This document shows positions 3,919-59,814 of a stretch of 64,000 nt of DNA, piece after piece. Position numbers and translations under genes: made by a program. The notes beneath the pieces are model-generated. The model saw only the letters and a program-made list of their open reading frames with translations. It made no database searches and was not told where the DNA came from. Origin of the DNA: a virus (Duplodnaviria > Caudoviricetes); the IMG/VR virus record IMGVR_UViG_3300034069_002177, positions 128,001 to 192,000 of that record; one strand, written 5' to 3'. Every line of letters starts with the position of its first letter. Within the stretch, counting starts at the first letter, position 1.

Positions 3919-3957
3919 AAAAGAAGCCCCGGAGAGAAAATCTCCGGGGCTTCTTTT
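3919..3957. terminator. Bidirectional intrinsic terminator
   Basis: 17-bp perfect IR AAAAGAAGCCCCGGAGA/TCTCCGGGGCTTCTTTT between convergent genes. Confidence 0.9.
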
Positions 3958-14206: not shown

Positions 14207-14230
14207 GATTTCTTCTTTCTTCGATACGTC

Positions 14231-14259
14231 AATCTACCACATTGAAAGGGATACCGCAA
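14231..14259 (-). promoter_or_regulatory. sigmaA promoter for ligA, TTGCGG-17-TAGATT (extended -10)
   Basis: Reverse-strand reading. Confidence 0.6.
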
Positions 14260-14353
14260 TGCAACTTAGGAAGGGTCCAGACGGACAAGTTTTCGTATTC
14301 GGAATGAGTATGCACGTTGTCGTATAGGATGAACCACGAATACAGGAGCGTTC

Positions 14354-15869: not shown

Positions 15870-15896
15870 CACACAATTGAAGCGATTGCGTAAGAA

Positions 15897-15918
15897 TGTC
15901 AGAGGTGTTCGTTATTCT
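15897..15918 (+). promoter_or_regulatory. PafBC/RecA-NDp-like promoter TGTCAG-N10-TATTCT
   Basis: Exact spacing; -10 lies in the loop of 8-bp IR GTGTTCGT/ACGAACAC (15905-15932). Confidence 0.6.
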
Positions 15919-15946
15919 TTAAACACGAACACAAGGAGTGACAATC

Positions 15947-16936
15947 GTGCCTAGCAACAAGATCGCTTGCCTCAACCCCGAGGCTCACCACACTCAGACT
16001 CATATCGCTGGTTCTGCCGCAGCTATTGCCTGCCAGCAGACCAACGGACGCAGTACGAAGATGGCTCACATCGTTGTCCCTCCGCGTCAAGTGCATAAGG
16101 GTAACAACATCGGAAACGTTTCCGTACTCACCAACATCTCCGAGGAAGCCCTGGAGTTCTCTAAGGCGAATATCAAGCGCGAAACCCCTCGTAACGTCGC
16201 TTCTCTTATCGAGGTAGCATCAACAAGCTCTGCTCTTCGTGAACAGTTCAAAGATTTCACCCGTCCTTTCGTCAACTTGGTTCATGACGAAGACTATGCG
16301 GATGCTTACGGCGAGAACGCACTACTTCCCAACCCCCACGATGTAGGTTTCACCTATACCGAGCCTAACGACCAGACTCAGAAGATCATTGACGCTCAAA
16401 AGGCACCTGGGTTCAACGGATTTGTTCAAGCGCTGGCTACGGAGATGGATACCGACTTCGACCAGGCAGCTTCCGCCTACAAGGTAATTGCCGGTTACTT
16501 GGGTGATGAAGACATCGCTAAGGTATATGCCGTTGGTTGCCTTCGTTCCGAATACCTTGACCGCAAGGACGAGGTTGCAGAGATCAATAAGGGCATCAAA
16601 GAACTTGAAGCTCTTTTCAATGAAGAGGTGGACGACGGAACTAAGGTCGGCAAGCACGGTATCGGTTTTGCTGACGGTGACGGCGTTCAGTTCACCCCTG
16701 CTCGTCAGTTCAACTACGATGACGCCGCTCCGCTTCCCTTGGATGACCTCGAAGGCGATGAGCGTGCTGAGGCTGTCGAATACAACAAGAATCGACTTTC
16801 TCAGGACGCCTATAAGAGCATCATTAAGTCTTGGGAGCCCAAGTATGAGCCCCTAGCTAAGATCGAGAAGACCCTAGAAAAAGAAGACTTTGACAAGTTC
16901 GTCACCTTTGGCTCGACCAAATTGACTGTCAAGTAA
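15947..16936 (+). CDS. Hypothetical protein with N-terminal Cys/His motif
   Basis: RBS AAGGAG, GTG 15947; IACLNPEAHHTQTHIAGSAAAIAC; own terminator. Confidence 0.75.
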   Translation: MPSNKIACLNPEAHHTQTHIAGSAAAIACQQTNGRSTKMAHIVVPPRQVHKGNNIGNVSVLTNISEEALEFSKANIKRETPRNVASLIEVASTSSALREQFKDFTRPFVNLVHDEDYADAYGENALLPNPHDVGFTYTEPNDQTQKIIDAQKAPGFNGFVQALATEMDTDFDQAASAYKVIAGYLGDEDIAKVYAVGCLRSEYLDRKDEVAEINKGIKELEALFNEEVDDGTKVGKHGIGFADGDGVQFTPARQFNYDDAAPLPLDDLEGDERAEAVEYNKNRLSQDAYKSIIKSWEPKYEPLAKIEKTLEKEDFDKFVTFGSTKLTVK

Positions 16937-16944
16937 GACCCTTC

Positions 16945-16987
16945 AACTAAATGGTCCCTGTAGAGATACAGGGACCATTTAGTTTTT
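16945..16987 (+). terminator. Intrinsic terminator
   Basis: 18-bp perfect IR, GAGA loop, T-tail. Confidence 0.9.
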
Positions 16988-17048
16988 CCTTGTGTTACCT
17001 GAGCGAAGTGCTACGATGTGCATTCAACACAAGCTGCTGAGGAAATTG

Positions 17049-18305
17049 ATGGCACAGAGAGATAACCGCGACTTTGGCGAACTCCGCGAAACCGCACCAA
17101 CAGATCAAGATTTTTACCGTGCTCTAGGTGAAAAGATGGGTCGTAGTCGATCCACTACCGGCAAGAGAGTTGCTGCTATCGGCGTGTGGGTGGTCGTCAT
17201 TGCATTCTTGGCTTTAACGGTTCTGAGCGCATTCCAAGTGAATACCAACCGCAACGGAACAGTCAAGCTTCAGGGGATGATTACGACTCAGTACAACCCT
17301 TCGTTTAAAACGCGCTATTCTGATCTTGGTAAAGAAATCATCAATAGCTGGTATGACACCAACGTCTCTCCTGCGCCAGTGCAGCTTGCTGATGGAGTAT
17401 CCTGGCCGCACACGGGTACGAGCGACCTCACTGATATCGAAGCCAACAATCAGGCAATCGCGAGCAAAGCGGACTACACCCCTTCCATCACTGTGCGTAA
17501 CGTCACTTACATTGGCGGTCGTCAAGAAAAGTCGCCCACTGTTGATGGTCAGTTCTATGAAATCGACATGTACTCGGCTTATGTCGATGGAACGCTCAGT
17601 AACATTTCCGTTACTCTTACCATCCCAAGCCTAGACGACTACACAACCCTTCCCACTTTGATGAACGAGCCGTCTATTCTTCCTAGCACCGCTTCTGTCG
17701 GCAAGCCGACCACTAGCGATGCGCCCAACTGGCGTGGAGTTTCGGCTACTGACAATTTCACCACGCAGCTAGAGTCATGGGCTGCCGCTTACACCGCAAA
17801 TGATTCATCTGCACTCAAGCAGATTACCGGTGATAACAGTGGAAGCTTCTACGTAGGTGCTGTATCCGACAAGACGTGGCAGTACATCAAAGACTCCGCA
17901 AAGGTTGTCTGGATCAAGGAAAACAACGGAAACACCAATGAAGCTGTTGCTCAGGTTACCTGGCAGATGAAGCTTCCCGACACTACCGTTGATGACCCCA
18001 ACAGCGACGACAGCAGCGATACTATCACCCAGACTGGCGCTACTCAGACGCAGCGTCTTGAGATCCTCATCAAGAGCCCCGGTAGTGGTCTTCCGCTTAT
18101 TGTTGCCTGGGGTCCAGTTGGAAGCTACGCAACTCTTACCGAGGACACCAACAAGTTGACCCAGGACGAGTACAACGCGATCACTGGATCTGTCACTTCC
18201 GATGGCGGCTCAGACTCTGGGAGCGGTACCGATAGTGGAACTACCAGTGATAATGGAAGTACACCTGCACCGACCGATTCAAGTACCGGAAAACCTTCGG
18301 ACTAA
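17049..18305 (+). CDS. TcpC/VirB8-like conjugal transfer protein (bitopic membrane protein)
   Basis: Single TM (IGVWVVVIAFLALTVLSAF), two extracellular NTF2-like repeats, FTTQLESWAAAYTAND, AWGPVG; directly upstream of VirB4. Confidence 0.55.
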   Translation: MAQRDNRDFGELRETAPTDQDFYRALGEKMGRSRSTTGKRVAAIGVWVVVIAFLALTVLSAFQVNTNRNGTVKLQGMITTQYNPSFKTRYSDLGKEIINSWYDTNVSPAPVQLADGVSWPHTGTSDLTDIEANNQAIASKADYTPSITVRNVTYIGGRQEKSPTVDGQFYEIDMYSAYVDGTLSNISVTLTIPSLDDYTTLPTLMNEPSILPSTASVGKPTTSDAPNWRGVSATDNFTTQLESWAAAYTANDSSALKQITGDNSGSFYVGAVSDKTWQYIKDSAKVVWIKENNGNTNEAVAQVTWQMKLPDTTVDDPNSDDSSDTITQTGATQTQRLEILIKSPGSGLPLIVAWGPVGSYATLTEDTNKLTQDEYNAITGSVTSDGGSDSGSGTDSGTTSDNGSTPAPTDSSTGKPSD

Positions 18306-18318
18306 CAAAACCATCCCC

Positions 18319-18346
18319 GCCCCGGCTATTGAAAGATAGCCGGGGC
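18319..18346 (+). terminator. Hairpin without U-tail (possible terminator or processing site)
   Basis: GCCCCGGCTAT-TGAAAG-ATAGCCGGGGC. Confidence 0.55.
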
Positions 18347-18394
18347 ACAAGAACCAACACAGCGAACTGCAATTAGGGTAGGATACGAGCAATT

Positions 18395-21157
18395 ATGGCA
18401 AACGACGAAGAAGAAAAGAAGAAGAGCCTTGCGAGAGGCTTCATCGACTACGTAATCAAGAGCAACGAAGAATCATTAGGGCATGGTCCTTATGGTGCCG
18501 AGTCCGACAGTCACGTTGACGCGAAACCGTATGTCGAGTATTACCAGAATGGCATCTTCGAGGGCTATGACGGTTCTATCTGGAAGTATTACAAGTTCCC
18601 CGCTGACGTTCAGACGGAGTGGCTGAAGAACCCAGAGAACATCATCTACAACCAGAAGTTCTTCACTCAGGCAATCACGGAGTTCGGTACGTTCTTGAAT
18701 GCTCAGTTGGAAAAGACCCGTAATGACATCCGGCGTCCCTTCCACATCCAAATCACGCAATCCGAGTCAACTGGAATTCGTATCCCCAGTGAGCAGGATG
18801 ACCGTGAGGGCAAGGTAACCCAGAAGACTCGCGATTACCTCAAGCGTATGACGGACGGATACACCCGACCAATCTGGCATCAGTACATGGGAGTTCGCCT
18901 TATCCCCGGAACCTTGTTCGGTGACGCATTCGGCATTACCGAAAAGGTCCGTCGATACATCGAAATTATGACCAATCCAGGTGAGATCGACCTCGCTTCT
19001 ATGAGCCGTGACCTTCATGATGTGGACAACATTATGTATGGTGCTGGTTTTAGCGAACTGGACTTCATCGCAAACCCCGAAGACTTCGAGCAGCTTACCG
19101 CTTGGTATGGCGTCTCGGACTCTCAGTTCAACCTTTCTCGCTCGCTACAGACGACGCGTATGAAAGAACCTCTGTCAGGTATGTCTGTCATTACTCCCAA
19201 GTACCAAGAAATCCAGCTATTTGCGTTGAAGCCCCGCGAAGGTGTCAACTTGAAGGATCCCCTAGATCCCGATGCAGCATGGGCTAAGCCTTTATACCGA
19301 CCGACTTCTGAAGTTGTCATGATCAGTATTCGCGGTCAGATTCGTGCCCCGAAGATTGCTGAGAACCTTCTTGAACTGAAAAACATTCGCAAAAATGAAG
19401 CCGGTCGTAAGCTTGGTGACACGTCACGACACGAGGTTGCAGGAATGATTTCTGACCTTGATGCCATCGAGAGGGCTCGATACGTCATCAATGAATACAA
19501 GCTTCCAATGCTCGATAACCTCGAAATTGTTATGGCTGCTAAGGTTAAGGGCGACGGCATTACGAACCAATTGTTCAATAGCCTAAAGAGCTATGACATG
19601 GAGGCTAATCTCCTCGTTGGTCGTCAGCCATTGGGTATTATGGCGTCACTTCCGACATATCCTCGTCAGACTCTGCGTGTTCCTCGTGGCAACACTAAGC
19701 GTCCAGAACTTTCCAACGTCATGCTTCCAGGAATGCTCGCTATGAGCGGACTTTTCCGCAGCACCAAGCCTTGTGCCAACTTTGGTATTCTTGTGGGACT
19801 TGCAACTGCTGGGCACTCGTATGAGGAAATCATGACCGAGGTTGATGGCGCAGCTAAAAATAACCGCGTTCCTGGTATGCTCATCACTGGTCGTCCTGGT
19901 GCCGGTAAGACGCAGCAGCTTCTCCAAATGTCAATTCAAATTGCCAACATGGGTCTCCCTGTTGCCTTCTTCAACCCGAAGAAGGAGAGTACGTTGAAGC
20001 CGACATTTGATCACATTCACGGAATCACGATTTCGATGGAAACCGCTTATCTTGACCAGAACCCCGGTCTTCTTGACCCGGTATTCTTCCTTAAGAACCG
20101 TGGTGACGTTGCTGACCTCGTTTCCGATGCCATTCTTACGGCTAACCGCATGTATGAAGACCGTGGAGCTTCCGCTTCTCAGCGTCGTACCAAGGTTTCA
20201 TCTGAAATTCGTGACCGTGCTCTCGACAAGAGAAACAGAACAACTTTCGACATTTTGTTCGGAAATAAGGCTGTAGGAACCACGGCGATTACTGACACTG
20301 ACATTCTCGACTTCGTTCGCAGCAAGATCAGCATTAGTGCGTTCTGGAAGGCATTCATTGCTCCTACCGCAACAAGCTCGGAATTGCAAAAGCAGATTAC
20401 CAGTGGTCGCTCATTCCTTATGGAATGGGGTAGCTCAATGAAGCTTCCTGACGCGTCCAAGGTTCCCAACGACTACACAGACCCCGAGATTGACACCGTT
20501 CTTTCTATCAACGTTACATTCAAGTACGCCGCCGAGGTTGTTGGAGGCGGTCAGGGTGGCGCGATTGTGGTTGACGAGTCGTGGGTATTGAAGCAGTCTC
20601 GTGAAGCTATGGCTATCCTCACCAAGGGTGGTCGTGAATGGCGTCAGGCTAACATCATGCTTATTATGGGTACACAGCGAATCATTGACTGGATCGATGC
20701 TCGGTCTGAGAAATCAAGCGGCAGTGGTGGAGGCGCAAGCAACATGTCTTCATATTTCGACCGTTACCTCTTCATGGCTATCAACGAAGCTGACGAGAAC
20801 GAATTGTCGGCGTACTTCGAGTTGACGGGTCTTCCCGACACCGATGCGAACCGACGCTGGATTATCGAAGCTGGTCCTCGTAAGGATGGAAAACTTCCTA
20901 ACGGTTACTACATCGACAACATTTACAACTGGGCTGGCGGACTCGTTTGTGGACCCTGGCCGCAATATGAACTCGACTTGGGTCGTACTGACAAGGAGGG
21001 TCTTGCCATGAAACAAAGAGGCGCGGCTACAAAGGCTCAACAGTCTTTCGCCAAGGCAGCGTCTTCGGGCGGTTATGGCGGCGCTTTACTTGATGTTATG
21101 AGCAATGACAACGATTTGGTTTCTGAGTTCGAAGAAAAAGAAGACGTAAACGCGTGA
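18395..21157 (+). CDS. VirB4/ConE-like conjugation ATPase
   Basis: 920 aa; Walker A GRPGAGKT, Walker B IVVDESW, REWRQANIMLIMGTQ; conjugation context. Confidence 0.8.
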   Translation: MANDEEEKKKSLARGFIDYVIKSNEESLGHGPYGAESDSHVDAKPYVEYYQNGIFEGYDGSIWKYYKFPADVQTEWLKNPENIIYNQKFFTQAITEFGTFLNAQLEKTRNDIRRPFHIQITQSESTGIRIPSEQDDREGKVTQKTRDYLKRMTDGYTRPIWHQYMGVRLIPGTLFGDAFGITEKVRRYIEIMTNPGEIDLASMSRDLHDVDNIMYGAGFSELDFIANPEDFEQLTAWYGVSDSQFNLSRSLQTTRMKEPLSGMSVITPKYQEIQLFALKPREGVNLKDPLDPDAAWAKPLYRPTSEVVMISIRGQIRAPKIAENLLELKNIRKNEAGRKLGDTSRHEVAGMISDLDAIERARYVINEYKLPMLDNLEIVMAAKVKGDGITNQLFNSLKSYDMEANLLVGRQPLGIMASLPTYPRQTLRVPRGNTKRPELSNVMLPGMLAMSGLFRSTKPCANFGILVGLATAGHSYEEIMTEVDGAAKNNRVPGMLITGRPGAGKTQQLLQMSIQIANMGLPVAFFNPKKESTLKPTFDHIHGITISMETAYLDQNPGLLDPVFFLKNRGDVADLVSDAILTANRMYEDRGASASQRRTKVSSEIRDRALDKRNRTTFDILFGNKAVGTTAITDTDILDFVRSKISISAFWKAFIAPTATSSELQKQITSGRSFLMEWGSSMKLPDASKVPNDYTDPEIDTVLSINVTFKYAAEVVGGGQGGAIVVDESWVLKQSREAMAILTKGGREWRQANIMLIMGTQRIIDWIDARSEKSSGSGGGASNMSSYFDRYLFMAINEADENELSAYFELTGLPDTDANRRWIIEAGPRKDGKLPNGYYIDNIYNWAGGLVCGPWPQYELDLGRTDKEGLAMKQRGAATKAQQSFAKAASSGGYGGALLDVMSNDNDLVSEFEEKEDVNA

Positions 21158-21243
21158 TAGGTTTACGCCCAAAATGTCTTAGAGGGGTCAAGCGTTTGCT
21201 AAGCTTCCGAAAGATGAACGAGAGAATTGGCTAGGTAAGGGTA

Positions 21244-23511
21244 GTGGCAAAGAAAGTAGCCTTTGTTGGATTTGGGGCAGTACAAGGTACTGACGCCCAG
21301 AGAGTGGCGAATGCATTAGGTGTTGAACCTGTTCAGCAGCTTGGATTCTTCGACTCAATCAACGATGCTGCACAATTCGTTGTAACCAAGGTGGACGGTA
21401 AAGTTACCGCCATCACTGGTTCCGAAGTGTATGTATCGGCTGAAGCTAGCGATGACACCATCTCTAAAGCACGACGTATTCGTTCTGTCGGAGTTGCTGT
21501 AAATTTGGACTGGGAGCCATTCAAGAATTCTCCTTACTCCGAGAACGCATTGCGTTCATGGATTGATGATGGCGAATGGTCTGATGATTCTGCCAATGTA
21601 GACGCTAACACGCAGTTCGTCATGCCTTCGTACGTTGATGATTCCGAAGAGCCAGAAAGTTACGTAGATACTCAGTATGCTCCGGTACCTGCTTCGGTTC
21701 CCCAAGCAGACCAGAATTACGGTTACGATACCAACGGCGAAGGTGCTTATGCCGAGCAGGCTGCACCTCAGTTCGAGGCACCTTCTGATGTCGCACCTCT
21801 CCCAATCATTCCTGTAGATCAGGGTGGATACACCTCTCCTGATTATTCACAGGACGGTTATGTTCAGGATGGATATGCCAATCAGAACGAAGAGCCGCAG
21901 TTTGACGCTGGAAACTATGTACCTGACTACGCAACCAATGAAGTTGCTGCTCCTGATGCTCCCGTTTACGAAGAAGTGCCTATTTTCGATGGTGGGGTTC
22001 CTACCCCGGCTGAGGAACCGCGTTATGAACTAGAGGATTCGCAGGAGCAAAGTGCCGCACCTGTTCCTATGGCGAGCTTCCTTACTGCTGGTCCGATTCC
22101 GGTACAGGAAGAAACGCCATATGAGTCTAATGACGGCTACTCCAATGACGGCTATGCTCAGCAGCCGGTTCCAGAATACAATCCTGGCAATGAGTACGCT
22201 TCGCAGGATTATGCTCAGCAAGAAACTCCTGACTACAATCAGTACACTGCTGTCCCTGAAGAGCCCAGCTATGACGCTCCGCAGTATGGTAATGACGGTT
22301 ATGCTGATGCTAACTCCTATCCTCAGGAGCCTCAGGAATACGTTGACTACAATCAACTTCCAGAGCCTTCCTACGAACAGCAGCAGGAACCTCAAAGCTA
22401 CACCACTCCTGAGCCGACTCCTGTGCCTCAGTACGTACCGGAAGAGCGACCCGCATCTGCTCCTTCTGTAGGTGGATACACAGCGCCCACTCCTGGCTCG
22501 TCATTCATCCAGCAGTCTCCTACGCCAGCGCCGCCTACTTCTCAGTACCAGCGTGAGCGTTCGATGTTTGATCAGGTTCCTGCTGGGGCAAACAATGACT
22601 TCGAAAGCCGCACTGGCGGAAAGATTGTCTACGTCACCGGCTCGCACGGTGGTGCAGGTAAGACGACCACGGCTTGGACTTTGGCTTCGCTTGTTGCCGT
22701 TTCCATGAAGAAAGCTGGCAACGAAGACATCTCGGTATGGCTCATCGAGTCTGATTACCGTAACTCGAAGCTCGCGCAGCGTCACAACATCGACCCCAAC
22801 CGTACTTCCGGGCACCTCGCGTCGATGCTTGAATGGTTGAACGACCAGTCCGGTATCGTTGATGATCTTCCTGCGAAAAAGGCTCACGCTATTGCTCAGT
22901 CCACTCACCGCTTGGAAAATGGACTGAACATCATTGCCTGTCCTTACGACACAACGAAGCGTGATACCAAGTACATTCAGCAGGCTGTTTTCCAGGCTGC
23001 TCAGTACGCAAAGATGCAGGGTGGAATCGTCTTCATCGACGCCGACACCATCAGCAACGATGACATCATGGATTCTAAGCTTGCTAAGGCTGCCGACCGA
23101 GTTGTCATCGTCTCTGACGCTGGTACCGAGCACATTGACGACCTCAAGAGGGCTGCACGCATTCTCACTACGCCCGTTATCAACGGCGGTCTTGGCGTAT
23201 CGATGCCTGCAATTACTGTTCTTCTGAACAAGACCGGTCCTACCGAGTTCAAAAACGTCGAAGACAGTGGAATTTTGGCACCTTTGGCGCTAGGTGGATA
23301 CCTACCGTTCATCCCAGAATGGGCAACTGGCTGGGTTGGTTCTTTGACAAATACTGAGACCTTCCAGAATGCTGTTGTTCTGTTCGCTCGCTTCTTCAAT
23401 GGAATTGTTCCTTTGCAGGAACTCCACCAATGGCAGAACTACCGCGCTACTGGAACCAGCAAGAAGGGCGGCGGAGGTTGGATTCGTCGCATCTTCTCTG
23501 GAAGAAAGTGA
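21244..23511 (+). CDS. MinD/CpaE(TadZ)-like ATPase with long acidic Pro/Tyr/Gln linker
   Basis: GSHGGAGKTT, LIESDYRNS, VFIDAD, LLNK; C-terminal amphipathic WIRRIFSGRK. Confidence 0.75.
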   Translation: MAKKVAFVGFGAVQGTDAQRVANALGVEPVQQLGFFDSINDAAQFVVTKVDGKVTAITGSEVYVSAEASDDTISKARRIRSVGVAVNLDWEPFKNSPYSENALRSWIDDGEWSDDSANVDANTQFVMPSYVDDSEEPESYVDTQYAPVPASVPQADQNYGYDTNGEGAYAEQAAPQFEAPSDVAPLPIIPVDQGGYTSPDYSQDGYVQDGYANQNEEPQFDAGNYVPDYATNEVAAPDAPVYEEVPIFDGGVPTPAEEPRYELEDSQEQSAAPVPMASFLTAGPIPVQEETPYESNDGYSNDGYAQQPVPEYNPGNEYASQDYAQQETPDYNQYTAVPEEPSYDAPQYGNDGYADANSYPQEPQEYVDYNQLPEPSYEQQQEPQSYTTPEPTPVPQYVPEERPASAPSVGGYTAPTPGSSFIQQSPTPAPPTSQYQRERSMFDQVPAGANNDFESRTGGKIVYVTGSHGGAGKTTTAWTLASLVAVSMKKAGNEDISVWLIESDYRNSKLAQRHNIDPNRTSGHLASMLEWLNDQSGIVDDLPAKKAHAIAQSTHRLENGLNIIACPYDTTKRDTKYIQQAVFQAAQYAKMQGGIVFIDADTISNDDIMDSKLAKAADRVVIVSDAGTEHIDDLKRAARILTTPVINGGLGVSMPAITVLLNKTGPTEFKNVEDSGILAPLALGGYLPFIPEWATGWVGSLTNTETFQNAVVLFARFFNGIVPLQELHQWQNYRATGTSKKGGGGWIRRIFSGRK

Positions 23512-23611
23512 AAATAATTTCACGAGTTTCTCGATAATGAGATTCTAACCTGTGAATTTGCCTATAATTATGAATAGTCGTCCTATTGGTCTATTGAAAG
23601 GTGTATGACTC

Positions 23612-23947
23612 ATGTCAAATCTACTCGCTGCCGCTAATTCTAGCGTAACCTCGTTTGCTGCTACGATCCCCACGTTCACGTGGACCCCTCCCCAGGGTCT
23701 CGTTGACGCATGTACAAAGGTTGGCTTCGTGCTTGCTGTTATTTGGGTGTTGTTCATCCTGTTCCAGTTCGCACTTCCTTCCAAGCAGGGTGGTGGACGT
23801 AAGCTTAGCCGTATCGGTGTCATGGGATTCTTGGGTGCTGGCGCACTCATCCTCTTGCTCTTCAACATTGCTTCTCTGCCAGCAATCATTAACTGGATCA
23901 TCCAGGTAATCAACTACATCGCTGGTCTGTTCTCTACTATTAAGTAA
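23612..23947 (+). CDS. Small membrane protein, pilin/VirB2-like candidate
   Basis: 111 aa, two hydrophobic helices, RBS GAAAGG, position within T4SS cluster. Confidence 0.5.
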   Translation: MSNLLAAANSSVTSFAATIPTFTWTPPQGLVDACTKVGFVLAVIWVLFILFQFALPSKQGGGRKLSRIGVMGFLGAGALILLLFNIASLPAIINWIIQVINYIAGLFSTIK

Positions 23948-23968
23948 GCCCTACCCAATTCGCCAATA

Positions 23969-24030
23969 GTAGAACGAACGGAAGGCGGCAATCGGTCAAT
24001 TCGGCTGGTTGCCGCCTTCTGGTGTTCTAC
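23969..24030 (+). other. Long intergenic RNA hairpin after pilin-like gene
   Basis: GTAGAAC..GGAAGGCGGCAATCGGTC / GGCTGGTTGCCGCCTTCT..GTTCTAC. Confidence 0.6.
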
Positions 24031-24059
24031 AATGAACCAATCACGAGACGAAAGACACA

Positions 24060-24686
24060 ATGGCATCATCATCTTCAACTCCAGAGTCTAGAGCACTCGC
24101 AAATGGCGTAATGAGTCTCAACTCTGTATTCGTTGTACGCAACAAGAAAAGACGACTCTTCAAACGCTCTACCATCCGGCTCTCGCTTGCTGAAATGGTA
24201 TGGATTGCCATTTCCACGCTCGGTCTCGGACTCATCATCTTCGGTGTTATTCGGGGTGTATCGGGCATCCCTGGTCTTCGATCCGTCATCTCGTATTATC
24301 TGATGATCCTTGCACCTATCGGTGGTTTCATTATCGGTCGTCAAATTGCTCGCACAAGTCCCTACCGGCGATACAGCGGTGAGGGTCTCAACGAATACCT
24401 TTGGGTACAGCGTGACAAGATTGGTAAAGAAGTTGGGCGTGTATTCGGTCGAGGCGTCTCTATCACTCGATCAATGGCAACAGTTGACGGTAGAAAAATT
24501 CCCGTGAACTGTGTAGAGTGGCTCGGTACCTCCCGAGCGACATCTATGCCAAGACCCGTAAACAAGTTTTATTCGCCTTCTAGGAACGAGAAGGCTGACT
24601 TCGTGTACCTTAGTCTAGTACCGCGCACCGAGGCAACAAATTGGTCTAAGCGTTACCAGCAAAAGCGCGCAAGAAACTGGGAGTGA
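24060..24686 (+). CDS. TcpE/VirB3-like membrane protein
   Basis: Two TM segments followed by basic cytoplasmic tail; T4SS context. Confidence 0.45.
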   Translation: MASSSSTPESRALANGVMSLNSVFVVRNKKRRLFKRSTIRLSLAEMVWIAISTLGLGLIIFGVIRGVSGIPGLRSVISYYLMILAPIGGFIIGRQIARTSPYRRYSGEGLNEYLWVQRDKIGKEVGRVFGRGVSITRSMATVDGRKIPVNCVEWLGTSRATSMPRPVNKFYSPSRNEKADFVYLSLVPRTEATNWSKRYQQKRARNWE

Positions 24687-24689
24687 TTC

Positions 24690-27600
24690 GTGATTCGTAA
24701 GGTCTTAAGCGGAATCAGGCGTCACCGTCTTTTCGTTTACATGTTCGTGGCAGTAGCCGTTTTGGGTGTTGCCGTATCCGCCAGTCTTACCAGCGATCCC
24801 AGTCAATCAATGGCTGTCAACACGCCTGCGACAGTAACTTCCGTGAACCATGTTGCCGCTGACTACTACCACAACTCGGTTGCTAATGCTGTTCAAAATG
24901 TGCAAGAAACTAGTGCATCCAGCTACAAGCAAGCGGCGGCATCTGATGGTCAATACAGCAGCGTACCGGCTCTTAAATCTCACCTACAGGGCGCAAACGC
25001 AACCAAATTGGACTCGCTCAATTACTTTGCGTTTTCTCGGTGGGCTACCGTCACGTTACTACCTGTTCCAGCCGTAGGTTTTGCCAATATCGGCTCACTA
25101 GTAGTCGCAGCATTTGTCTCTTTGGCTAATCTACTTTTCACTATCGGAGCTATCGTTCTCCTTGGTGTAGGTCTTTTGATGCTTCTGATTACCAGCATCA
25201 ATCTTCTTACGGCATTTTTGCCTACCATCGACTGGTTCTTTGCTCAACTGGGAGGTCAGTGGCTTACCAACCCTAGCGGCGGTGGCGGAACCGGAACCAT
25301 AGCCAGCAGCTTCCAGGGCGCTTCTCCATTTTTCATTGCCATATTCCTGATGGTCATTGCCGTCGCAATTCGGCTATCTCCATTAGCTAATAAGGACAGA
25401 TCTCTTTTAGGTGACATCGTTATCTCTGCTGTAGCAATTGCCGCACTCATGACGATTTCTACCGCATCTACAAAAGACTGGAACAACTCAAACAGCAATA
25501 AGGTAGACGCTATCAATGGGAATACAGGCTCCTCCATCCCACTAGGATCCAATGTCGCCGCCTCACTTTCTGTCGATGGCGGAGATCCGTCTAATTATCA
25601 AAAAGCGTCCTTCGGCTGGTTCCTGGCTAATGGAAGCGATATTGTCGATGGCGCAGTCAACTTCGCTGGTGGTCTTATTACTTCCATTACCTCCGGTTTG
25701 GGCGCTATCTCCAATAGCGGCACTACCACCGCGCCTGCTGGTTCAAGCTGCTACAACTACCTCAACACTGGTATGCATGGCATCGCTTCAGATGTGCTTG
25801 AAAACAAAAAGGGTATTGCGTTCATTGGAAAGACCAGCACTCAATCGATTCTCTCCTTTGATAGCCTCGTTTACACCGTACTTTATCGACCAGCCGCTGA
25901 GGCTTCTTACGGAGCGAATGCCTCCGGCGATGCTACATGGTGTCGTATGTGGGAATCTGCTCGTGGGTCGGACCCGGTAGATCAAGCTTATATCGCTCGA
26001 ACTGCAAATATGTACTCAGACGCATTGAGTAACAATACTGATGCCAAAGACGGCGGAGATGGCATTCTAAAGGTAGACGGCGGTTGGGCAGATTCTGACG
26101 GTGGAAACAATGCCGTGAATGGTCATGCCAAGCTCGCGGGATTCTTTGGAAACACCCTTTCTACGTCTAAGGGTACGACAGCGTTTAAGTTCTACTGGGC
26201 TGCATGTTCGTTTGAAGGCAATGGACGGGTAAAGGTTTCTTCCGCATTCACTAATGCCCTTGGTACAGCCAAGAAAGATGACGATTCACCAGATGGTAGC
26301 AAGGGCGACAAGCTGAGTGATGGTGACTGCCAAACTGTGCTTCAAACTGCGGATAGCAGCAGCGGCTACATTTTCGGTGCCAAAAACAAAGATAACGACT
26401 CCATGAAAAATCTGAGCCCCTTCGCTTGGACTCAGGACGACAAATTGTTCACATTGTTCTTTATTGGATTCTCTGTTCCGGCAGATACCAGCACAGAACT
26501 CGCAAATGCTGACATGAATGGCTCGGAAGCCATCAACTTCTTCAAGATGGTCTACGGTTCAAGCGCAGGAAACGTTTGGCCAGCCGCCATCGTTGCTGTT
26601 GTGGGTACCATTATGATGTCTATTGGTCTTCTTCCGATGCAGGTTGGTGCATTGATCTTGCAGATGATTTCTGTTCTTTCTCTTATCGCCTTCCCCATTG
26701 TTCTGTTGGTGATGATTGTTCCTATCAGAGCGGGAAGAAAAGCATTCTTTACGATTCTCAAGCTATTCATTTCATCCAAGCTCGTACAGCTAATCTTCGT
26801 AACCTTCATCGCTATTGCTATCGCGATCATCAACCTTTTGACGATTGCGTTCGGTACCGTTCTCAATGTATCTCTCATCGGAGGAAACGCATTTACGGGA
26901 GATGGCACGCCACTCGGAACCTTCATTAAGGCTATTTTGAACGCAGTCGCCATCGGAATCGCTTTCTACGGAACCAAGAAGCTGCTTAGAGATGTCTTTA
27001 AGGCTGATGTCACGACCATCAAGGGTGCTATGTCCGTTGGTCAGAACATGGCTAGTACCGCCGTCAACGGTGGAGGCTTGCGCGAGATGGGTCTTGGGCA
27101 ACTTAAGTCGCCAGTACGTGGTGGTGCCGCTGGTACGGGTGGTTTCGGAAATGCTAACCTTCCTGAAGGATTGGGCAAGAACACTGGTGCTGACAACGAG
27201 CCGCGTCAGCCTGAAATGCCCAAGCGTCAGGACGAAAAGCAGGCTCCTGAAGATCCCAAGCAGAAGCCCAATGAAACCGCAGAGGGTGCTGCTGGCTTGG
27301 CAGGTGGCATCGCTGGTGTTGCTGGTGGTGCATCAGGCGGAGCAGGAGGTAGTGCGCTTGGTGATGTCGCTGGTGGCGCAGTGGCTGGCGGGTTTGCAGG
27401 CGGCGCTCCTGGCGCTCTCGCGGGCGGTTCTATCGAGGTTCCTGCCGCCGCATCGAAGTCGATTCAAGGCACCGTTGGTGATGGCATGAAGAACGCTCCT
27501 ACCGAGGGTCCGAATTCCAGAAACCCTGAAGCTCCCGTACCTAACGATCAGATGCTCACGGAAGAACAGCGTAAGGAAGCTGCCGAGAAGACTGAGGGTA

Positions 27601-28583
27601 TCCGTAGCGTTTCTGGTATCAAATCCGAGGATGTGTCCAACGAGATTGGTAACCGCTCACGCAACACTGCTGCTCTCGAAAGTCAGTTGGATGATGGTGA
27701 ACTCAACGGTGACGAAGAGCAGGTCCGTGATGCAGTCAACAAGCTTGGTGGAAGTTCTCACCTTGAAGGTTCGGCTGAGGAAGCCAAGGATTCGCCTGCT
27801 ATTGAAGCAAGCCGTCGTGATTACTTCGATAACAACGTGGACAATGAAGAACGTCCCGTTGATCGTGGTGAGAAGGCTGGTGAAGGTAACGTTCATGCTG
27901 CAACTCTCGAACGTATTGCTCGGGCTACCGAAGAGCAGAACGAACGTGATGACAACACCGTTACGCCTGAGGGTTCCGTGCAGGTTGTTCCTGGTGAAGA
28001 GGATGGTCAGAATGCTCGCGACCAAGAAGTCCAAGGCAACAACATTCCCGGACTCGAAAGTACCGACGATGGTCGTGGCAACTCGCAACGCGGCGGTCAG
28101 CAGAACAATCAGCAGACCATTATTGCCGGGGCAGAGAGCGTACAGCCCACTGACACCAATGCAAACAACATTGGTCAGGTGGACAATAACGCCGCTCGTG
28201 CTGACAACTACAAGGCTGCAATTGGCTCCGAGTTCGAAGCTCCCGGAATGGCAGAAGATTCTTCTACCGCCAACTCTGGTAGCGCTGGACTTGGTAGTGA
28301 AGGTCTGAACCGCAGGCTGGACAGCCTTCCTGGTGAAATTAGCCGTTCCATGCAAAACGTCATGGAGCCCGCCTTCGACCGATTCGATGCACTTGGTCGA
28401 ACGGTACGCGAGTCGGCTGAGGTTCAAGAGGATGCGCTTCAGCGCAATACCGAGTCGAACGAACGTATCTCCGAGGCTCAGATTGCAAGCATGGAGAATC
28501 TTCAGCAGACAATTGCTAATTGGTTCCCTGACAGGGGTTCAGATAACAGCCCGAATAACAGCGCTGGTCCTACCTGGCGTTAG
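24690..28583 (+). CDS. VirB6-like polytopic conjugation membrane protein with long disordered C-terminus
   Basis: Many TM segments in two clusters around an extracellular Cys-containing domain; G/E/N/Q-rich tail. Confidence 0.6.
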   Translation: MIRKVLSGIRRHRLFVYMFVAVAVLGVAVSASLTSDPSQSMAVNTPATVTSVNHVAADYYHNSVANAVQNVQETSASSYKQAAASDGQYSSVPALKSHLQGANATKLDSLNYFAFSRWATVTLLPVPAVGFANIGSLVVAAFVSLANLLFTIGAIVLLGVGLLMLLITSINLLTAFLPTIDWFFAQLGGQWLTNPSGGGGTGTIASSFQGASPFFIAIFLMVIAVAIRLSPLANKDRSLLGDIVISAVAIAALMTISTASTKDWNNSNSNKVDAINGNTGSSIPLGSNVAASLSVDGGDPSNYQKASFGWFLANGSDIVDGAVNFAGGLITSITSGLGAISNSGTTTAPAGSSCYNYLNTGMHGIASDVLENKKGIAFIGKTSTQSILSFDSLVYTVLYRPAAEASYGANASGDATWCRMWESARGSDPVDQAYIARTANMYSDALSNNTDAKDGGDGILKVDGGWADSDGGNNAVNGHAKLAGFFGNTLSTSKGTTAFKFYWAACSFEGNGRVKVSSAFTNALGTAKKDDDSPDGSKGDKLSDGDCQTVLQTADSSSGYIFGAKNKDNDSMKNLSPFAWTQDDKLFTLFFIGFSVPADTSTELANADMNGSEAINFFKMVYGSSAGNVWPAAIVAVVGTIMMSIGLLPMQVGALILQMISVLSLIAFPIVLLVMIVPIRAGRKAFFTILKLFISSKLVQLIFVTFIAIAIAIINLLTIAFGTVLNVSLIGGNAFTGDGTPLGTFIKAILNAVAIGIAFYGTKKLLRDVFKADVTTIKGAMSVGQNMASTAVNGGGLREMGLGQLKSPVRGGAAGTGGFGNANLPEGLGKNTGADNEPRQPEMPKRQDEKQAPEDPKQKPNETAEGAAGLAGGIAGVAGGASGGAGGSALGDVAGGAVAGGFAGGAPGALAGGSIEVPAAASKSIQGTVGDGMKNAPTEGPNSRNPEAPVPNDQMLTEEQRKEAAEKTEGIRSVSGIKSEDVSNEIGNRSRNTAALESQLDDGELNGDEEQVRDAVNKLGGSSHLEGSAEEAKDSPAIEASRRDYFDNNVDNEERPVDRGEKAGEGNVHAATLERIARATEEQNERDDNTVTPEGSVQVVPGEEDGQNARDQEVQGNNIPGLESTDDGRGNSQRGGQQNNQQTIIAGAESVQPTDTNANNIGQVDNNAARADNYKAAIGSEFEAPGMAEDSSTANSGSAGLGSEGLNRRLDSLPGEISRSMQNVMEPAFDRFDALGRTVRESAEVQEDALQRNTESNERISEAQIASMENLQQTIANWFPDRGSDNSPNNSAGPTWR

Positions 28584-28591
28584 TAAGTCGG

Positions 28592-28645
28592 TTGCAAGTT
28601 CTCCTTCGTTGGTGTACCATCAGGTCGCAACGAAGGAGAACTTGC
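28592..28645 (+). promoter_or_regulatory. Promoter TTGCAA-17-TACCAT embedded in 18-bp perfect IR that sequesters the dnaX RBS
   Basis: GCAAGTTCTCCTTCGTTG 28594-28611 / CAACGAAGGAGAACTTGC 28628-28645; RBS AAGGAG 28633-28638; TTG 28647. Confidence 0.75.
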
Positions 28646-28646
28646 T

Positions 28647-30380
28647 TTGACCAAATTCGCACTTGACGAAGAATCGCTCGATATCGACGATCAGGATGTC
28701 AACGAAAACGATTACGATGACACCACTAACGCTGATGGCACCACCGCTGTCGATGAGTCTGATTACGATGATGGTGATGACGCCGCTACCCAGAACGTAA
28801 ATGAAGTAGTGGTAGAAATCAAGCCTAAGGTTGTAGAAGTCAAGAATCCTGTCGATACCGTAAAGGCAACCGAACCAGACTCCCCCTACGTCGTACTCTA
28901 CCGCCGATTCCGCCCGCACAAGTTCTCTGAAATCATTGGTCAGGACAGCACGGTAAAGGCACTTCGTTCGGCAGTAATCAATCACAAGGCGGCGAACGTC
29001 TACCTGTTCTCAGGTGAGCGGGGCACGGGAAAGACCACGACCGCCCGCGTTCTAGCTTCGGCATTGAACTGCCCCTTTGTACGCCCCGATGGCGAGCCTT
29101 GCGGGGTATGTGACCTCTGTGTCAATGTTCATGCTGGTAACGGCTCAGACGGCGTTACAGAGCTTGATGCGGCTAGCAATAGCTCGGTGGATGATGCCCG
29201 CCGCATCATCAATGAAATCCAGTTCGCTCATGGCTCCAAGAAGAACATCTACATCATTGATGAGGTACACCTTCTTTCCAAGCAGGCGAACGGAACGCTG
29301 CTGAAGACCCTCGAAGAGCCTCCTGCTAATGTCATCTTCATCCTGTGCACAACAAACCCCGAGCGTCTCGAACCGGCTGTTCGTTCCCGTGCTACCGCGT
29401 TCTCCTTCCACGAACTCGATGACACAACCATGCAGGGTCTCATCAAAGAGGTTGCTGCGGAAGCTGGCATCGAGGTAACGGACGAACAGATTGCGGGAGT
29501 TGTTCGTCGTGGACGAGGTTCGGCACGTGATGCCCTGAGTGCACTCGAAAGTCTTTCTCTGAACACCGATGTAGTCGTCGAGTACGACAACCATGCTTCG
29601 GCAATCACCAAGGCTGTCGGAGACAAGAGCGTATCTGACATCATCATCGCAGTAGCCAAGGCAATCGATGGCGGTCTTAGCGTCAGTGAGATCGCTACCT
29701 CTCTGCTTGCTTATTGGCGTTCGATGATTCTTGTTCTGAATGCGCCCGAGATTGTCAAGCTGACCGATGCAGAGTTCGATTCGGTTCTCGACGTTGCTGA
29801 GAAAATGGGTACTGACAAAACAATCCACATGCTTCGTAAGTTAGGTGAAGCTCATGGCTCTTTGCTACAAGGAGATCCGCGAGTCATGATCGAAACCACG
29901 CTGATTCAGTTTGTTCTTCCGCACAATGATGCCGCCGCACTGCGCGACTTGAACCAGAAACTTGATTCGGTTGCTGGCGATGTGAGCGAGTTGCGTAAAC
30001 GTCCCGCTAGTTCACCTTTCAATTCTGAGCCAGGTACGAAAAAAGACAATTGGCTTGATGATTCGGAACCTAAAAAGGACACCAAGAAGGCAGATTCGGT
30101 AGTAGAGAATCCAGCAACTAAACCAGAAGAAAAGACGGCGGTAGCTGCGAGTTCTATCGAAATCATTTCTGACCCAGATGACCTTATCGATGCAATCTTC
30201 GAGAACGTTCCTAAGAAGGTACAGCTTTCACTTTCTGAGTTGGAAGTCGATACGAAGAATACGACTAGGAAACTTCTTGTTCTGAAGAGTCACAAGGGAA
30301 TTACGGATGACGAATTTGAACTACTTGAAAAGGCAGTCGCCAAGGTTGATCCCCGCGAATTTGATTTGGATGAAGACTAG
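28647..30380 (+). CDS. dnaX: DNA polymerase III clamp-loader subunit gamma/tau
   Basis: LYRRFRPHKFSEIIGQ, GERGTGKTT, Zn Cys cluster, ELDAAS, IDEVHLLS, LLKTLEEPP. Confidence 0.92.
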   Translation: MTKFALDEESLDIDDQDVNENDYDDTTNADGTTAVDESDYDDGDDAATQNVNEVVVEIKPKVVEVKNPVDTVKATEPDSPYVVLYRRFRPHKFSEIIGQDSTVKALRSAVINHKAANVYLFSGERGTGKTTTARVLASALNCPFVRPDGEPCGVCDLCVNVHAGNGSDGVTELDAASNSSVDDARRIINEIQFAHGSKKNIYIIDEVHLLSKQANGTLLKTLEEPPANVIFILCTTNPERLEPAVRSRATAFSFHELDDTTMQGLIKEVAAEAGIEVTDEQIAGVVRRGRGSARDALSALESLSLNTDVVVEYDNHASAITKAVGDKSVSDIIIAVAKAIDGGLSVSEIATSLLAYWRSMILVLNAPEIVKLTDAEFDSVLDVAEKMGTDKTIHMLRKLGEAHGSLLQGDPRVMIETTLIQFVLPHNDAAALRDLNQKLDSVAGDVSELRKRPASSPFNSEPGTKKDNWLDDSEPKKDTKKADSVVENPATKPEEKTAVAASSIEIISDPDDLIDAIFENVPKKVQLSLSELEVDTKNTTRKLLVLKSHKGITDDEFELLEKAVAKVDPREFDLDED

Positions 30381-30463
30381 GGCGATACGAACCTCCGATA
30401 ATGGGGTTCAAGTTAGTCTAACGAAGTATGATGGTCGCAAGAACAAACATTTGAGGGGTTTCA

Positions 30464-31603
30464 TTGGTTACGTCGCTTTCCCGTGAGGACAGAATTCTTG
30501 GCAGCGTTAAGCCATTCCGGTTGTCTAGCGCTACAGAGATAGCAACACTTAGACGAGTATTCTCGCGTATTTCCGGTCTGAGCGTTGGTCAGTTCTCTGA
30601 GAACGGTTTTGGATTCCCATTCATTCCGTTCCCTGAGATTGATCCAACCAACCCCGACAAGACGAAGCTATCTCCAGCTAACACCGCCGAGCGTTTCCTC
30701 TTCCACCCCATTTATTGGATTGACCCTCGCCTCACCGCGCCAACGCAGACGGAACTTACCGATCCTGCTCGGTGGTCGATTCGAATGTTCTACGAGCTTC
30801 TTTCGTTTGGGCTTCTCAACCCTGAGACCCTACAGTGGCTAAACCCCGCTGTGGTCAAGGGTGTTAGCTGGACTCCTGCCGACATTAATAGCCTTCTGAA
30901 TGATGCCCCTTCTATCTTGGATGATGTCATTTTCCGCGACGGCGATAGACTTCCCGGCTACTCGTCATCTGATGTTCTTGAGGCATCTGATACTGCATTC
31001 GAGCGAATTCGCGCCATTCAGCAGCGTGAGATTACGCGCATCCGCTCGCTTCGTAAGGTGGCAATGGATGATTCAAACTTGATTCTTAGTGGTCAGGATA
31101 TTTGGACTCGTTTGTTCCCCCGTTTCGAGAAAGTTGCTCGTGAGATTGATGAGGCTCGCCAACAAGGTATGCCTCTATCCAGCTTCCTCGATGAGATCTA
31201 CTCAGTAAAGACCGACATTGCTCGATACCTCGCTTCTGCTGATGACGCGATTATGGGTTTGACTTACGACATCGCTGATCAGGTTTCGTTCTCCAACGAC
31301 GCGGTAATGCGCTTCGCTGCGATCTCGGCACTCGTGAAGCGCGGTCGTGGACTCATCTCTCGCGCCGAAGCAGAAATGGATGAGCAACTAAACGCTATCT
31401 TCAGCGGCACCAACGTATCCGCCATGAGAATGGTTGAGATGGTTTCGAGAATGTACGCCGATATGATTGATAGACTATCGCTCGCGTACCGTAACAACGA
31501 ACTTGCCACACGCGGCGAGCGAGTCATTCGAAGTATTGATGAACAGATGTTCGACGAGACGCAGAGGACTCAGCAGGCAAGCGATAGCGATTTCCAGTTC
31601 TAG
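30464..31603 (+). CDS. Hypothetical protein upstream of coupling protein
   Basis: 379-aa ORF, TTG start with RBS GAGGGG; helical C-terminus. Confidence 0.65.
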   Translation: MVTSLSREDRILGSVKPFRLSSATEIATLRRVFSRISGLSVGQFSENGFGFPFIPFPEIDPTNPDKTKLSPANTAERFLFHPIYWIDPRLTAPTQTELTDPARWSIRMFYELLSFGLLNPETLQWLNPAVVKGVSWTPADINSLLNDAPSILDDVIFRDGDRLPGYSSSDVLEASDTAFERIRAIQQREITRIRSLRKVAMDDSNLILSGQDIWTRLFPRFEKVAREIDEARQQGMPLSSFLDEIYSVKTDIARYLASADDAIMGLTYDIADQVSFSNDAVMRFAAISALVKRGRGLISRAEAEMDEQLNAIFSGTNVSAMRMVEMVSRMYADMIDRLSLAYRNNELATRGERVIRSIDEQMFDETQRTQQASDSDFQF

Positions 31604-31636
31604 CATTCGTAGCGGTTTCCTCTATAACAAGGAGGA

Positions 31637-44981: not shown

Positions 44982-45017
44982 GAGGGCGGGTAGCTAATAA
45001 GCTACCCGCCCTTCTTT
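44982..45017. terminator. Terminator between convergent dnaE and dnaB
   Basis: GAGGGCGGGTAGCT-AATA-AGCTACCCGCCCTT. Confidence 0.85.
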
Positions 45018-52721: not shown

Positions 52722-52765
52722 TTGTGAGTTCTCGGGTTGCATGGTATTGTGTAACCCGAGAAAGG
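52722..52765 (+). promoter_or_regulatory. Promoter TTGTGA-17-TATTGT embedded in 13-bp hairpin overlapping the sbcD RBS
   Basis: TTCTCGGGTTGCA 52729-52741 / TGTAACCCGAGAA 52750-52762; RBS GAGAAAGG 52758-52765. Confidence 0.65.
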
Positions 52766-52770
52766 CAAGA

Positions 52771-53937
52771 ATGATCAAGATTATCGCTATCGCGGACCCG
52801 CATGTCGATGCTACCTCTATTGGAGGATTTGATAAGGACAAGGGTATTCACTCGAACTGGGTAGAGTCCTTTGCTCGTCTGAATGACGCTATTGACGCAG
52901 CTAATGCGTGTGAAGCTCAGTTCTTCGTTGTGGCTGGTGACTTGTTCGATACCGGTAAGCCAACTGCTGAAGCTGTTGCGCTCGTTCGCGATGCCTTTCG
53001 TCGTCTTCATCCTGGTTGTATTGTCGTCATTATCGACGGCAATCACGATCAGCAGACGGTCGTGGGTAATCAGCGCACCCCTGTTGCTGCTTACTTTGGA
53101 GATCTCAAAAATGTTGTGACTGCTTCCACTCCTGAACTCATTGATATCGATGGAATGCAGTTCGCTCTAGCACCGTGGATTCGCGTAGCAGGCAAGTCGA
53201 AAGTTCGGAACATTAGCGACGAACTGAAAATGGTCGTGGAAGGTCTTTCGAACAAAGTAAAACCGGGACCGTCGATGTTCCTCGGTCACCTCGTGGTTGA
53301 TGAATGCACATTCGACAATGGGATGGATAACCGTGGCTCTGAAATGAACATGGCTACTACCTTGCTGGAAGCCCACGTTCCCACCGAACTACTCGATGCA
53401 GGCGAATGGTCACTAGCGCGGCTGGGTCACATTCACAAGCGCCAGCAACTTTCGGCAAAAACCGGTTACATCGGTTCGCCCTATAAAGTTTCGTTCGGTG
53501 AATATCGCGAGTCGAAGGGTTACGACCTCATCACTATTGACGACAAGAACAATTCTACTGTCACGTTCAAGGAACTAAAAGTCCGTAACCTCGTCAAGCT
53601 AGACCTCAGTTCAACTGGCGAAGACAGCATCACCGATATCGAAAAGGTGGGCGAACACGACATCGTTCGTCTTGTAGTTGATCACGATGGCGCTGATTCT
53701 TTGGACATCAAGAACGCTAAGGCGAGATTGGAGAAGCTTGGTATCTCTCATCAGATTTCTCGTCTGCCTCGACCCAAGCGTGATGCAATTTCTCGCGTGA
53801 ATGGTGCCGCTGTTGACACGACCCCGGTCAGCGCACTGCTGTTGTACTTGGACAGACACGGTGTAACTGAGCTTGATGAGCGCGATGCGCTGGTTCATGA
53901 ACTCAGTGCCATTCTCAACATGGTCGGGACTAAGTAA
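52771..53937 (+). CDS. sbcD: SbcD/Mre11 nuclease
   Basis: ADPHVD, VAGDLFD, IDGNHD, LGHLVV, LGHIHKRQ, YIGSP. Confidence 0.88.
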   Translation: MIKIIAIADPHVDATSIGGFDKDKGIHSNWVESFARLNDAIDAANACEAQFFVVAGDLFDTGKPTAEAVALVRDAFRRLHPGCIVVIIDGNHDQQTVVGNQRTPVAAYFGDLKNVVTASTPELIDIDGMQFALAPWIRVAGKSKVRNISDELKMVVEGLSNKVKPGPSMFLGHLVVDECTFDNGMDNRGSEMNMATTLLEAHVPTELLDAGEWSLARLGHIHKRQQLSAKTGYIGSPYKVSFGEYRESKGYDLITIDDKNNSTVTFKELKVRNLVKLDLSSTGEDSITDIEKVGEHDIVRLVVDHDGADSLDIKNAKARLEKLGISHQISRLPRPKRDAISRVNGAAVDTTPVSALLLYLDRHGVTELDERDALVHELSAILNMVGTK

Positions 53938-59792: not shown

Positions 59793-59814
59793 TGTCGGTT
59801 CGTACTGATATGAT
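59793..59814 (+). promoter_or_regulatory. PafBC/RecA-NDp promoter motif TGTCGG-N10-TATGAT
   Basis: Exact match to TGTCGG-N10-TANNNT. Confidence 0.65.

Follow-up and report, generated by a model that had tools for sequence, protein, structure and literature searches.

Davis, Simons and Kleckner reportedly found in 1985 that IS10/Tn10 (and IS50) are shielded from promoters outside the element because the incoming RNA folds back on itself and sequesters the ribosome site of the transposase: external transcripts of IS10 carry the complement of the ribosome site and are not translated, whereas transcripts from the resident promoter begin inside the repeat and are translated. McPheeters et al. are said to have described, in 1986, T4 leader hairpins that mask translation and contain an internal late promoter. 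Here we describe a leader of related design in front of a dnaX-type clamp-loader gene on a giant element of conjugative type. The gene lies in a stretch of 64,000 nucleotides (nt), called the window throughout, which represents positions 128001-192000 of the 202,737-base pair (bp) IMG/VR record IMGVR_UViG_3300034069_002177, classed as a provirus. The arrangement of the leader suggests that DnaX may be translated only from RNA that begins at the gene's own promoter.

Section 29 of PMC3014915 reviews such leaders in T4, where genes e (lysozyme), soc, 49 and I-TevI each have a hairpin that inhibits translation and a late promoter inside it. There, as at dnaX, the Shine-Dalgarno (SD) sequence and/or start codon lies in the 3′ strand of the helix and the promoter lies in the DNA encoding the 5′ strand; long upstream RNAs are masked and promoter-proximal RNAs, which lack the 5′ strand, are translated, as we propose for dnaX. 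The T4 precedent invoked when this leader was first noticed (in a note made from the letters of the window, hereafter the original prediction) is borne out, as the same part of PMC3014915 gives the design as established for gene e. The two cases also differ. In T4, the hairpins serve a temporal switch from early to late expression and depend on a phage sigma factor and a late promoter that consists of a -10 element only, whereas the dnaX promoter is of the -35/-10 housekeeping type. Moreover, the dnaX element is of conjugative type and not a T4-like phage, the contrast that we propose sets read-through RNA against own-promoter RNA, and the dnaX mask is so far predicted from sequence. For IS10, the portion of PMC13181058 that treats it states, citing Davis et al. 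1985, that the transposase translation signals are sequestered in secondary structure. The purpose in IS10, insulation from read-through, is the one that we propose for dnaX, but IS10 and IS50 insulate a transposase at the element's end from host transcription, whereas the boundary at dnaX would be internal, between two of the element's own modules. IS200 combines a terminator with a repeat that sequesters the SD sequence (PMC4513863).

The dnaX leader and gene consist of these features, all on the + strand of the window:

28592..28597, + strand: -35-like hexamer TTGCAA, of which TTG is invariant in six lineages
28594..28611, + strand: left (5′) arm of the hairpin, the anti-SD strand; it overlaps the -35 and promoter spacer and would be present only on RNA begun upstream
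28612..28627, + strand: 16-nt loop with the -10 element, from RNA folding and the repeat scan
28615..28620, + strand: -10-like hexamer TACCAT, exactly 17 nt past the -35; TACTAT in the other five lineages
28626..28629, + strand: predicted transcription start, ~G28627 (7 nt past the -10), with a purine there in six lineages
28628..28645, + strand: right (3′) arm of the hairpin, which would form the 5′ untranslated region (UTR) including the SD sequence AAGGAG, from sequence, folding and opening energies
28647..30380, + strand: dnaX-type clamp-loader gene of 577 amino acids (aa), matching PF13177 and TIGR02397; its TTG start is kept in all lineages

The two arms are complementary at 18 of 18 positions. 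A scan of the whole window for repeats found no perfect repeat with arms exceeding 18 bp and one other, a terminator, with arms of that length; by our own arithmetic, chance alone would give ~5e-5 perfect repeats with 18-bp arms and a loop of <=60 nt per 64 kb. The AAGGAG sequence (28633-28638) falls within the right arm, which ends at 28645, and the single nucleotide T28646 intervenes before the TTG start at 28647-28649. On the other side, TTGCAA (28592-28597), a 17-nt spacer (28598-28614) and TACCAT (28615-28620) extend across the left arm and loop. These coordinates agree throughout with the original prediction, which had described a perfect 18-bp inverted repeat with AAGGAG in a right arm that ends 1 nt before the TTG, and TTGCAA-17-TACCAT across the left arm and loop. 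The stem that it postulated is also stable on folding. RNA covering 28570-28670 has a predicted energy of -43.6 kcal/mol (z-score, z = -6.2; 0 of 200 shuffles were equally stable), ~5 extra pairs lengthen the 18-bp stem to ~23 bp, and the intergenic region, a gap of 63 nt between the upstream stop and the dnaX start, gives z = -8.1 when folded alone. When the hairpin was compared with the covariance models of Rfam 15, the only matches were to miRNA hairpins at chance level (18-20 bits, against gathering thresholds of 60-84).

A protein search and contig look-ups added five lineages in which the gene order is kept, six including the window, and their DnaX proteins share 50-67% identity. The intergenic regions of these six lineages (52-65 nt) align without gaps over the promoter, where the invariant columns are GTTG at the -35, followed by TG and GTAC.AT at the -10. 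The promoter spacer is exactly 17 nt in 6/6 lineages, and the -10 reads TACTAT in 5/6 and TACCAT in the window. From the end of the -10 to the TTG start there are 26 nt (23 nt in L016), from the end of the SD sequence to the start 6-8 nt across lineages, and the base 7 nt past the -10 is a purine in every lineage (G, G, G, G, A and G). This conserved pattern very probably reflects a real, working promoter of the -35/-10 housekeeping type. Support for the promoter comes from this conservation, not from a match to consensus, and matches to E. coli-type promoters are depleted in this part of the window (2 at 14000-32000, against 15 expected). We also considered whether the dnaX promoter might be a recurrent phage-type motif and rejected this candidate, as the extended -10 word has 15 matches against 16.9 expected.

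The consequence of the hairpin for ribosome access was expressed as an opening cost, the energy in kcal/mol required to make the segment from SD sequence to start codon single-stranded, both for read-through RNA and for short RNA begun 6-9 nt past the -10. The predicted costs, with the identity of each DnaX to that of the window, are as follows:

Window: read-through RNA 26.5, promoter-started RNA 3.7-3.9 kcal/mol
L012 (60% identity, as for L012 to L014 and L019 to L024): read-through RNA 24.3, promoter-started RNA 3.6-3.9 kcal/mol
L003 (65% identity): read-through RNA 11.4, promoter-started RNA 2.6-3.6 kcal/mol
L015 (63% identity): read-through RNA 6.9, promoter-started RNA 2.2-2.7 kcal/mol
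L016 (52% identity): read-through RNA 3.5, promoter-started RNA 2.2-2.4 kcal/mol
L017 (50% identity): read-through RNA 5.8, promoter-started RNA 6.0-6.6 kcal/mol

The values for the window agree with the earlier proposal that a transcript from this promoter lacks the left arm and leaves its ribosome-binding site free: opening is predicted to cost 3.7-3.9 kcal/mol on such RNA versus 26.5 kcal/mol on read-through, and the promoter-started RNA has no unusual structure (z +0.29). Across the 125 SD-bearing starts in the 203-kb record, none shows as large a difference between the two RNAs as dnaX, at 24.1 kcal/mol (median 1.8, 95th percentile 8.3).

We lean towards the interpretation that the dnaX leader insulates translation in the manner of T4 gene e or IS10, such that DnaX would be translated only from own-promoter RNA. 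From the layout and the modeled energies, we infer a start site, the existence of read-through RNA, a block to its translation and a biological purpose, and these would fit together as follows. The promoter TTGCAA-17-TACCAT, with its predicted start at ~G28627, would lie between the transfer-like operon and dnaX, and its -35 and spacer region is the exact complement of the dnaX 5′ UTR and SD sequence. RNA started at this promoter would begin at about the 5′ end of the right arm, would be unable to form the stem and would leave the ribosome site open. Read-through RNA from the upstream operon would contain both arms and fold into the 18-bp stem (~23 bp when extended); as this stem would hide the SD sequence up to 1 nt short of the TTG, read-through RNA would yield no DnaX. 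In the window, 10 nt separate the upstream stop codon from the stem (7 nt in L012), and since a terminating ribosome would not be expected to melt it, translational coupling would be prevented too. The net effect would be that DnaX, and probably the products of the subsequent genes, are made from the dnaX promoter only, regardless of the activity of the transfer operon. As the original prediction suggested, such an arrangement may decouple replisome dosage from transfer-gene expression; a second module, described below, sits at another junction between transfer and DNA-metabolism genes.

In translational-coupling hairpins, such as that linking MS2 coat to replicase, a downstream ribosome site is hidden on polycistronic RNA and upstream translation opens the hairpin. 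Given the ribosome footprint, a ribosome terminating in front of dnaX should not open an 18-bp stem that starts 10 nt downstream. The dnaX hairpin is therefore not expected to be of the coupling kind, and the internal promoter would bypass it instead. A small frame whose TGA overlaps the TTG start was also considered as a coupling device and was rejected, since the TGA is missing in L016 and L017.

The comparison of relatives, to which the original prediction had pointed for evidence of conservation, gave a divided answer: the promoter is present in 6/6 lineages, but the hairpin is strong in 2/6 and shows no covariation. The strong 18-bp hairpin occurs in the window lineage and in L012-type contigs. 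Between these two, the arms are identical at 36/36 positions, whereas the loop matches at 9/16 and the flanks at ~45-70%. The spacer that encodes the left arm matches that of the window at 18/18 positions in L012 but at 5-7/18 in L003 and L015, which lack this hairpin. The left arm thus appears to stay unchanged only in lineages where it can pair with the leader, and we take this pattern as evidence that the pairing is under selection. The hairpin of L003 is a different one, of ~16 bp (z ~ -4): its -35 region is paired to the bases just 5′ of the SD sequence, and a CUCU to the GGAG within the SD; most of this stem lies 5′ of the SD sequence, which is partly masked. L015 carries a weaker version of the L003-type hairpin, and no hairpin was found in the dnaX leaders of L016 and L017. 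The DnaX tree does not settle the order of the four closer lineages or whether the hairpin-bearing pair are sisters, so gain and loss of the hairpin cannot be ordered. Cluster members within 90% identity have identical intergenic regions and so carry no covariation information. Additional relatives were sought in plasmid DNA (no match), in genome contigs (just one distant chromosomal dnaX), among phage proteins (all matches below 60% identity, none spanning 80% of the query) and in metagenome contigs (no contig beyond one already in the set).

Several observations weigh against translational insulation as the function of this leader. The promoter agrees with the E. coli consensus at 8/12 positions, and our consensus scan, which had a threshold of 9/12, did not call it. 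When the 18 stem pairs are followed through the six-lineage alignment, 59% are paired, which equals the shuffled controls, and there are no compensatory changes; as the arms are identical in both bearing lineages, these also offer no covariation. L016 and L017 have little or no masking, indicating that masking is dispensable for the locus. Finally, the geometry of the locus is a confounding factor. Where a promoter and a 20-nt leader are packed into a gap of 52-65 nt, any hairpin will use the spacer and the leader, so masking could be a by-product of a hairpin that functions in termination, processing or RNA stability.

The architecture is not confined to dnaX. The second and third most masked of the 125 starts share it, and all three of the most masked starts have TTGNNN-17-TANNNT with the -10 between the arms and ending 15-35 nt before the start, compared with 12/125 starts overall (hypergeometric P = 7e-4, in a post-hoc test). 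The two further modules are:

52722..52773, + strand: second module, downstream of an FtsK/SpoIIIE-like gene (49617-52709) and in front of an SbcD/Mre11-like gene that starts at 52771
L035:1250-1345, equivalent to record 49749-49844 and outside the window: third module, at a thioredoxin/DsbA-like gene (record position 49836)

At the SbcD-like gene, TTGTGA (52722-52727) is followed after 17 nt by TATTGT (52745-52750), and arms of 13-14 bp (52729-52741 and 52750-52762) flank the -10. The predicted opening cost is 19.2 kcal/mol on read-through RNA versus 4.0 kcal/mol on short RNA. As with dnaX, this promoter is conserved (in five lineages) and the hairpin is variable. In the window it masks the SD sequence, and in L025, which derives from the same relative as L003, there is no mask. 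In L036 (940-1025), a 15-bp pairing joins the promoter spacer to the start codon and the first four codons and leaves the SD sequence in the loop (opening cost 15.0 versus 4.9 kcal/mol; z -3.4). The thioredoxin-like module has TTGCTG-17-TACGAT, with TGc before the -10 and GGAGG at the end of its 3′ arm. The module is immediately preceded by an intrinsic terminator, a combination of terminator and SD-sequestering repeat that is like that of IS200.

Modules that share one logic but differ in sequence and in target within the initiation region would be the expected outcome of convergent selection for masking specific to read-through RNA. Within this family of giant conjugative-type elements, promoter-embedded masks could be modular, fast-evolving insulators that border transfer versus replication and repair genes and have arisen repeatedly, although we offer this broader proposal tentatively and would not yet bet on it. 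The pairings involved would be with the SD sequence at dnaX and with either the SD sequence or the start codon, depending on lineage, at the SbcD-like gene, the thioredoxin-like gene being the third case.

One alternative is that the dnaX hairpin works mainly on the upstream transcript, where it would be a terminator or pause site poor in U, a 3′ stabilizer or an RNase III-type site at which the transfer and dnaX mRNAs are cut apart, and that masking of the SD sequence is a by-product. With 18 bp plus ~5 bp, the stem could accommodate a double-strand RNase, and it is followed by three U. In addition, three to four lineages have stable but differently built hairpins in this gap (z -8.1, -9.1, -4.4 and -2.1), the L003 stem lies mostly 5′ of the SD sequence, and other intergenic hairpins in the window are terminators. 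However, the scan for rho-independent terminators made no call at the dnaX hairpin, where the stem is followed by just TTT and no T-run. Moreover, the 3′ arm covers the SD sequence or start codon in four independent hairpins (at dnaX in the window and L012, at the SbcD-like gene in the window, at the SbcD-like gene in L036 and at the thioredoxin-like gene), and in L036 the arm extends into coding sequence, which would be costly if any hairpin sufficed. We consider a role confined chiefly to the upstream transcript unlikely, but it deserves to be kept in mind, especially as such a role and insulation of dnaX are not mutually exclusive.

It is much less probable that the inverted repeat is a DNA operator, at which a dimeric repressor bound to both arms would control dnaX transcription. 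The repeat does span the region from the -35 to ~+19, and GTTGC and GCAAC are common to four lineages. Yet perfect 18-bp arms set 16 bp apart are unlike typical operators, and the promoter is kept without the repeat in four lineages. The dnaX arm sequence is also unique in the 203-kb record, and the three promoter-hairpin repeats have no sequence in common, those at the two other promoters being unrelated and each complementary to its own ribosome site; together these features argue against a shared protein operator.

We give very little credence to a role for the hairpin in DNA that is single-stranded while being transferred by conjugation or replicated, for instance as a priming site or single-strand promoter. 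The element does encode transfer-type genes and a Replic_Relax-type protein, but this idea leaves the exact overlap with the ribosome site unexplained, and the structure is not conserved in relatives. In the folded strand, moreover, the -10 would lie in the loop with no template strand downstream, unlike Frpo-type single-strand promoters. Extrusion of a cruciform is also improbable with a 16-nt spacer. A functionless palindrome, arising by chance or by local duplication and inversion, would be consistent with the missing hairpin in 4/6 lineages but is already disfavored and highly improbable, given arms that are identical at 36/36 positions while loop and flanks diverged, a chance expectation of ~5e-5 per window and the recurrence of the design at other genes.

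The gene downstream of the hairpin is, as first assigned, a genuine gene of the dnaX type: its 577-aa product matches TIGR02397 (dnaX_nterm) with 284.4 bits (cut-off 250) and PF13177 at 3.7e-32. The product scores below the cut-offs of the full-length dnaX equivalog models, and PF12169 is absent among the families reported for it at E <= 0.01, while the cellular DnaX matches in our protein search carry PF12169. An acidic, Asp-rich extension of ~80 aa (28647-28890) forms its N terminus.

The features upstream, in order along the window, are:

16945..16984, + strand: strong intrinsic terminator with a perfect 18-bp stem, 4-nt loop and T-run, from repeat and terminator scans
16992..28583, + strand: co-directional, transfer-apparatus-like gene array, its gene order kept in relatives
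18395-21157, + strand: VirB4-like AAA_10 ATPase of 920 aa (AAA_10 at 1.6e-12)
21244-23511, + strand: P-loop protein within the transfer-like array, alongside small membrane proteins
24690-28583: open reading frame (ORF) of 1297 aa directly upstream of dnaX, with its TAG stop at 28581-28583; its product has 12 transmembrane-like segments and appears polytopic

The upstream genes plausibly resemble a transfer apparatus of Gram-positive type. The original prediction had spoken of an upstream conjugation operon, and this description holds in part: the VirB4-like AAA_10 ATPase and the 1297-aa protein with 12 transmembrane-like segments favor it, but the remaining proteins of the array had no family match in the searches made, leaving the AAA_10 ATPase as the component with an assignment. 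The terminator at 16945-16984 likely marks the start of the upstream transcription unit: between 16985 and 28583 the terminator scan called no further convincing + strand terminator, so transcription would be expected to extend into the leader of dnaX.

A GTGCTACGAT-type extended -10 follows the terminator at 16945-16984 and heads the transfer-type array. The GTGC-TAnnnT word, a TGn extended -10, recurs before several genes (window 17010-17020; record 49800, 107330 and 107300) and represents a promoter class distinct from the -35-bearing dnaX promoter. Elsewhere, TGTCGG-type words with TAnnnT 8 nt on (window 59793-59814; record 60880-60910) resemble the actinobacterial RecA-independent promoter of PafBC type; in the window, this motif has five near-matches against 1.9 expected, none of them at the dnaX leader. 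Terminator hairpins also occur at the ends of converging ORFs, at 3919-3957 (bidirectional) and 44983-45012.

On the 3′ side of dnaX, genes for proteins of 379 aa and 921 aa (30464-34402; the latter with transmembrane-like segments) are conserved in all relatives, although neither protein matched a Pfam, PHROG or atlas family. A weak Replic_Relax match also lies downstream of dnaX. A PHROGs search of the genes neighboring dnaX returned no phage structural or other informative matches.

The mechanism that we propose is already known from T4 and insertion sequences, and the dnaX leader, as read from its sequence, would be a known trick in a new setting. What appears new is the setting in a giant conjugative-type element, the placement of dnaX behind a -35/-10 promoter, and a fixed promoter whose mask may be gained, lost or rebuilt. 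The combination of a fixed promoter with a changing mask provides a clean natural experiment that could inform both reporter assays and the construction of genetic insulators. For annotators, it is a caution that operon membership deduced from spacing may fail at the level of translation. If the broader proposal of repeatedly evolved masks holds, the trick used by T4 and IS10 would be a general, convergently evolved solution that extends beyond T4-like phages and insertion sequences. If the masking is confirmed, it would give large mobile elements a general means of holding the dosage of a replication protein independent of a strongly induced neighboring operon.

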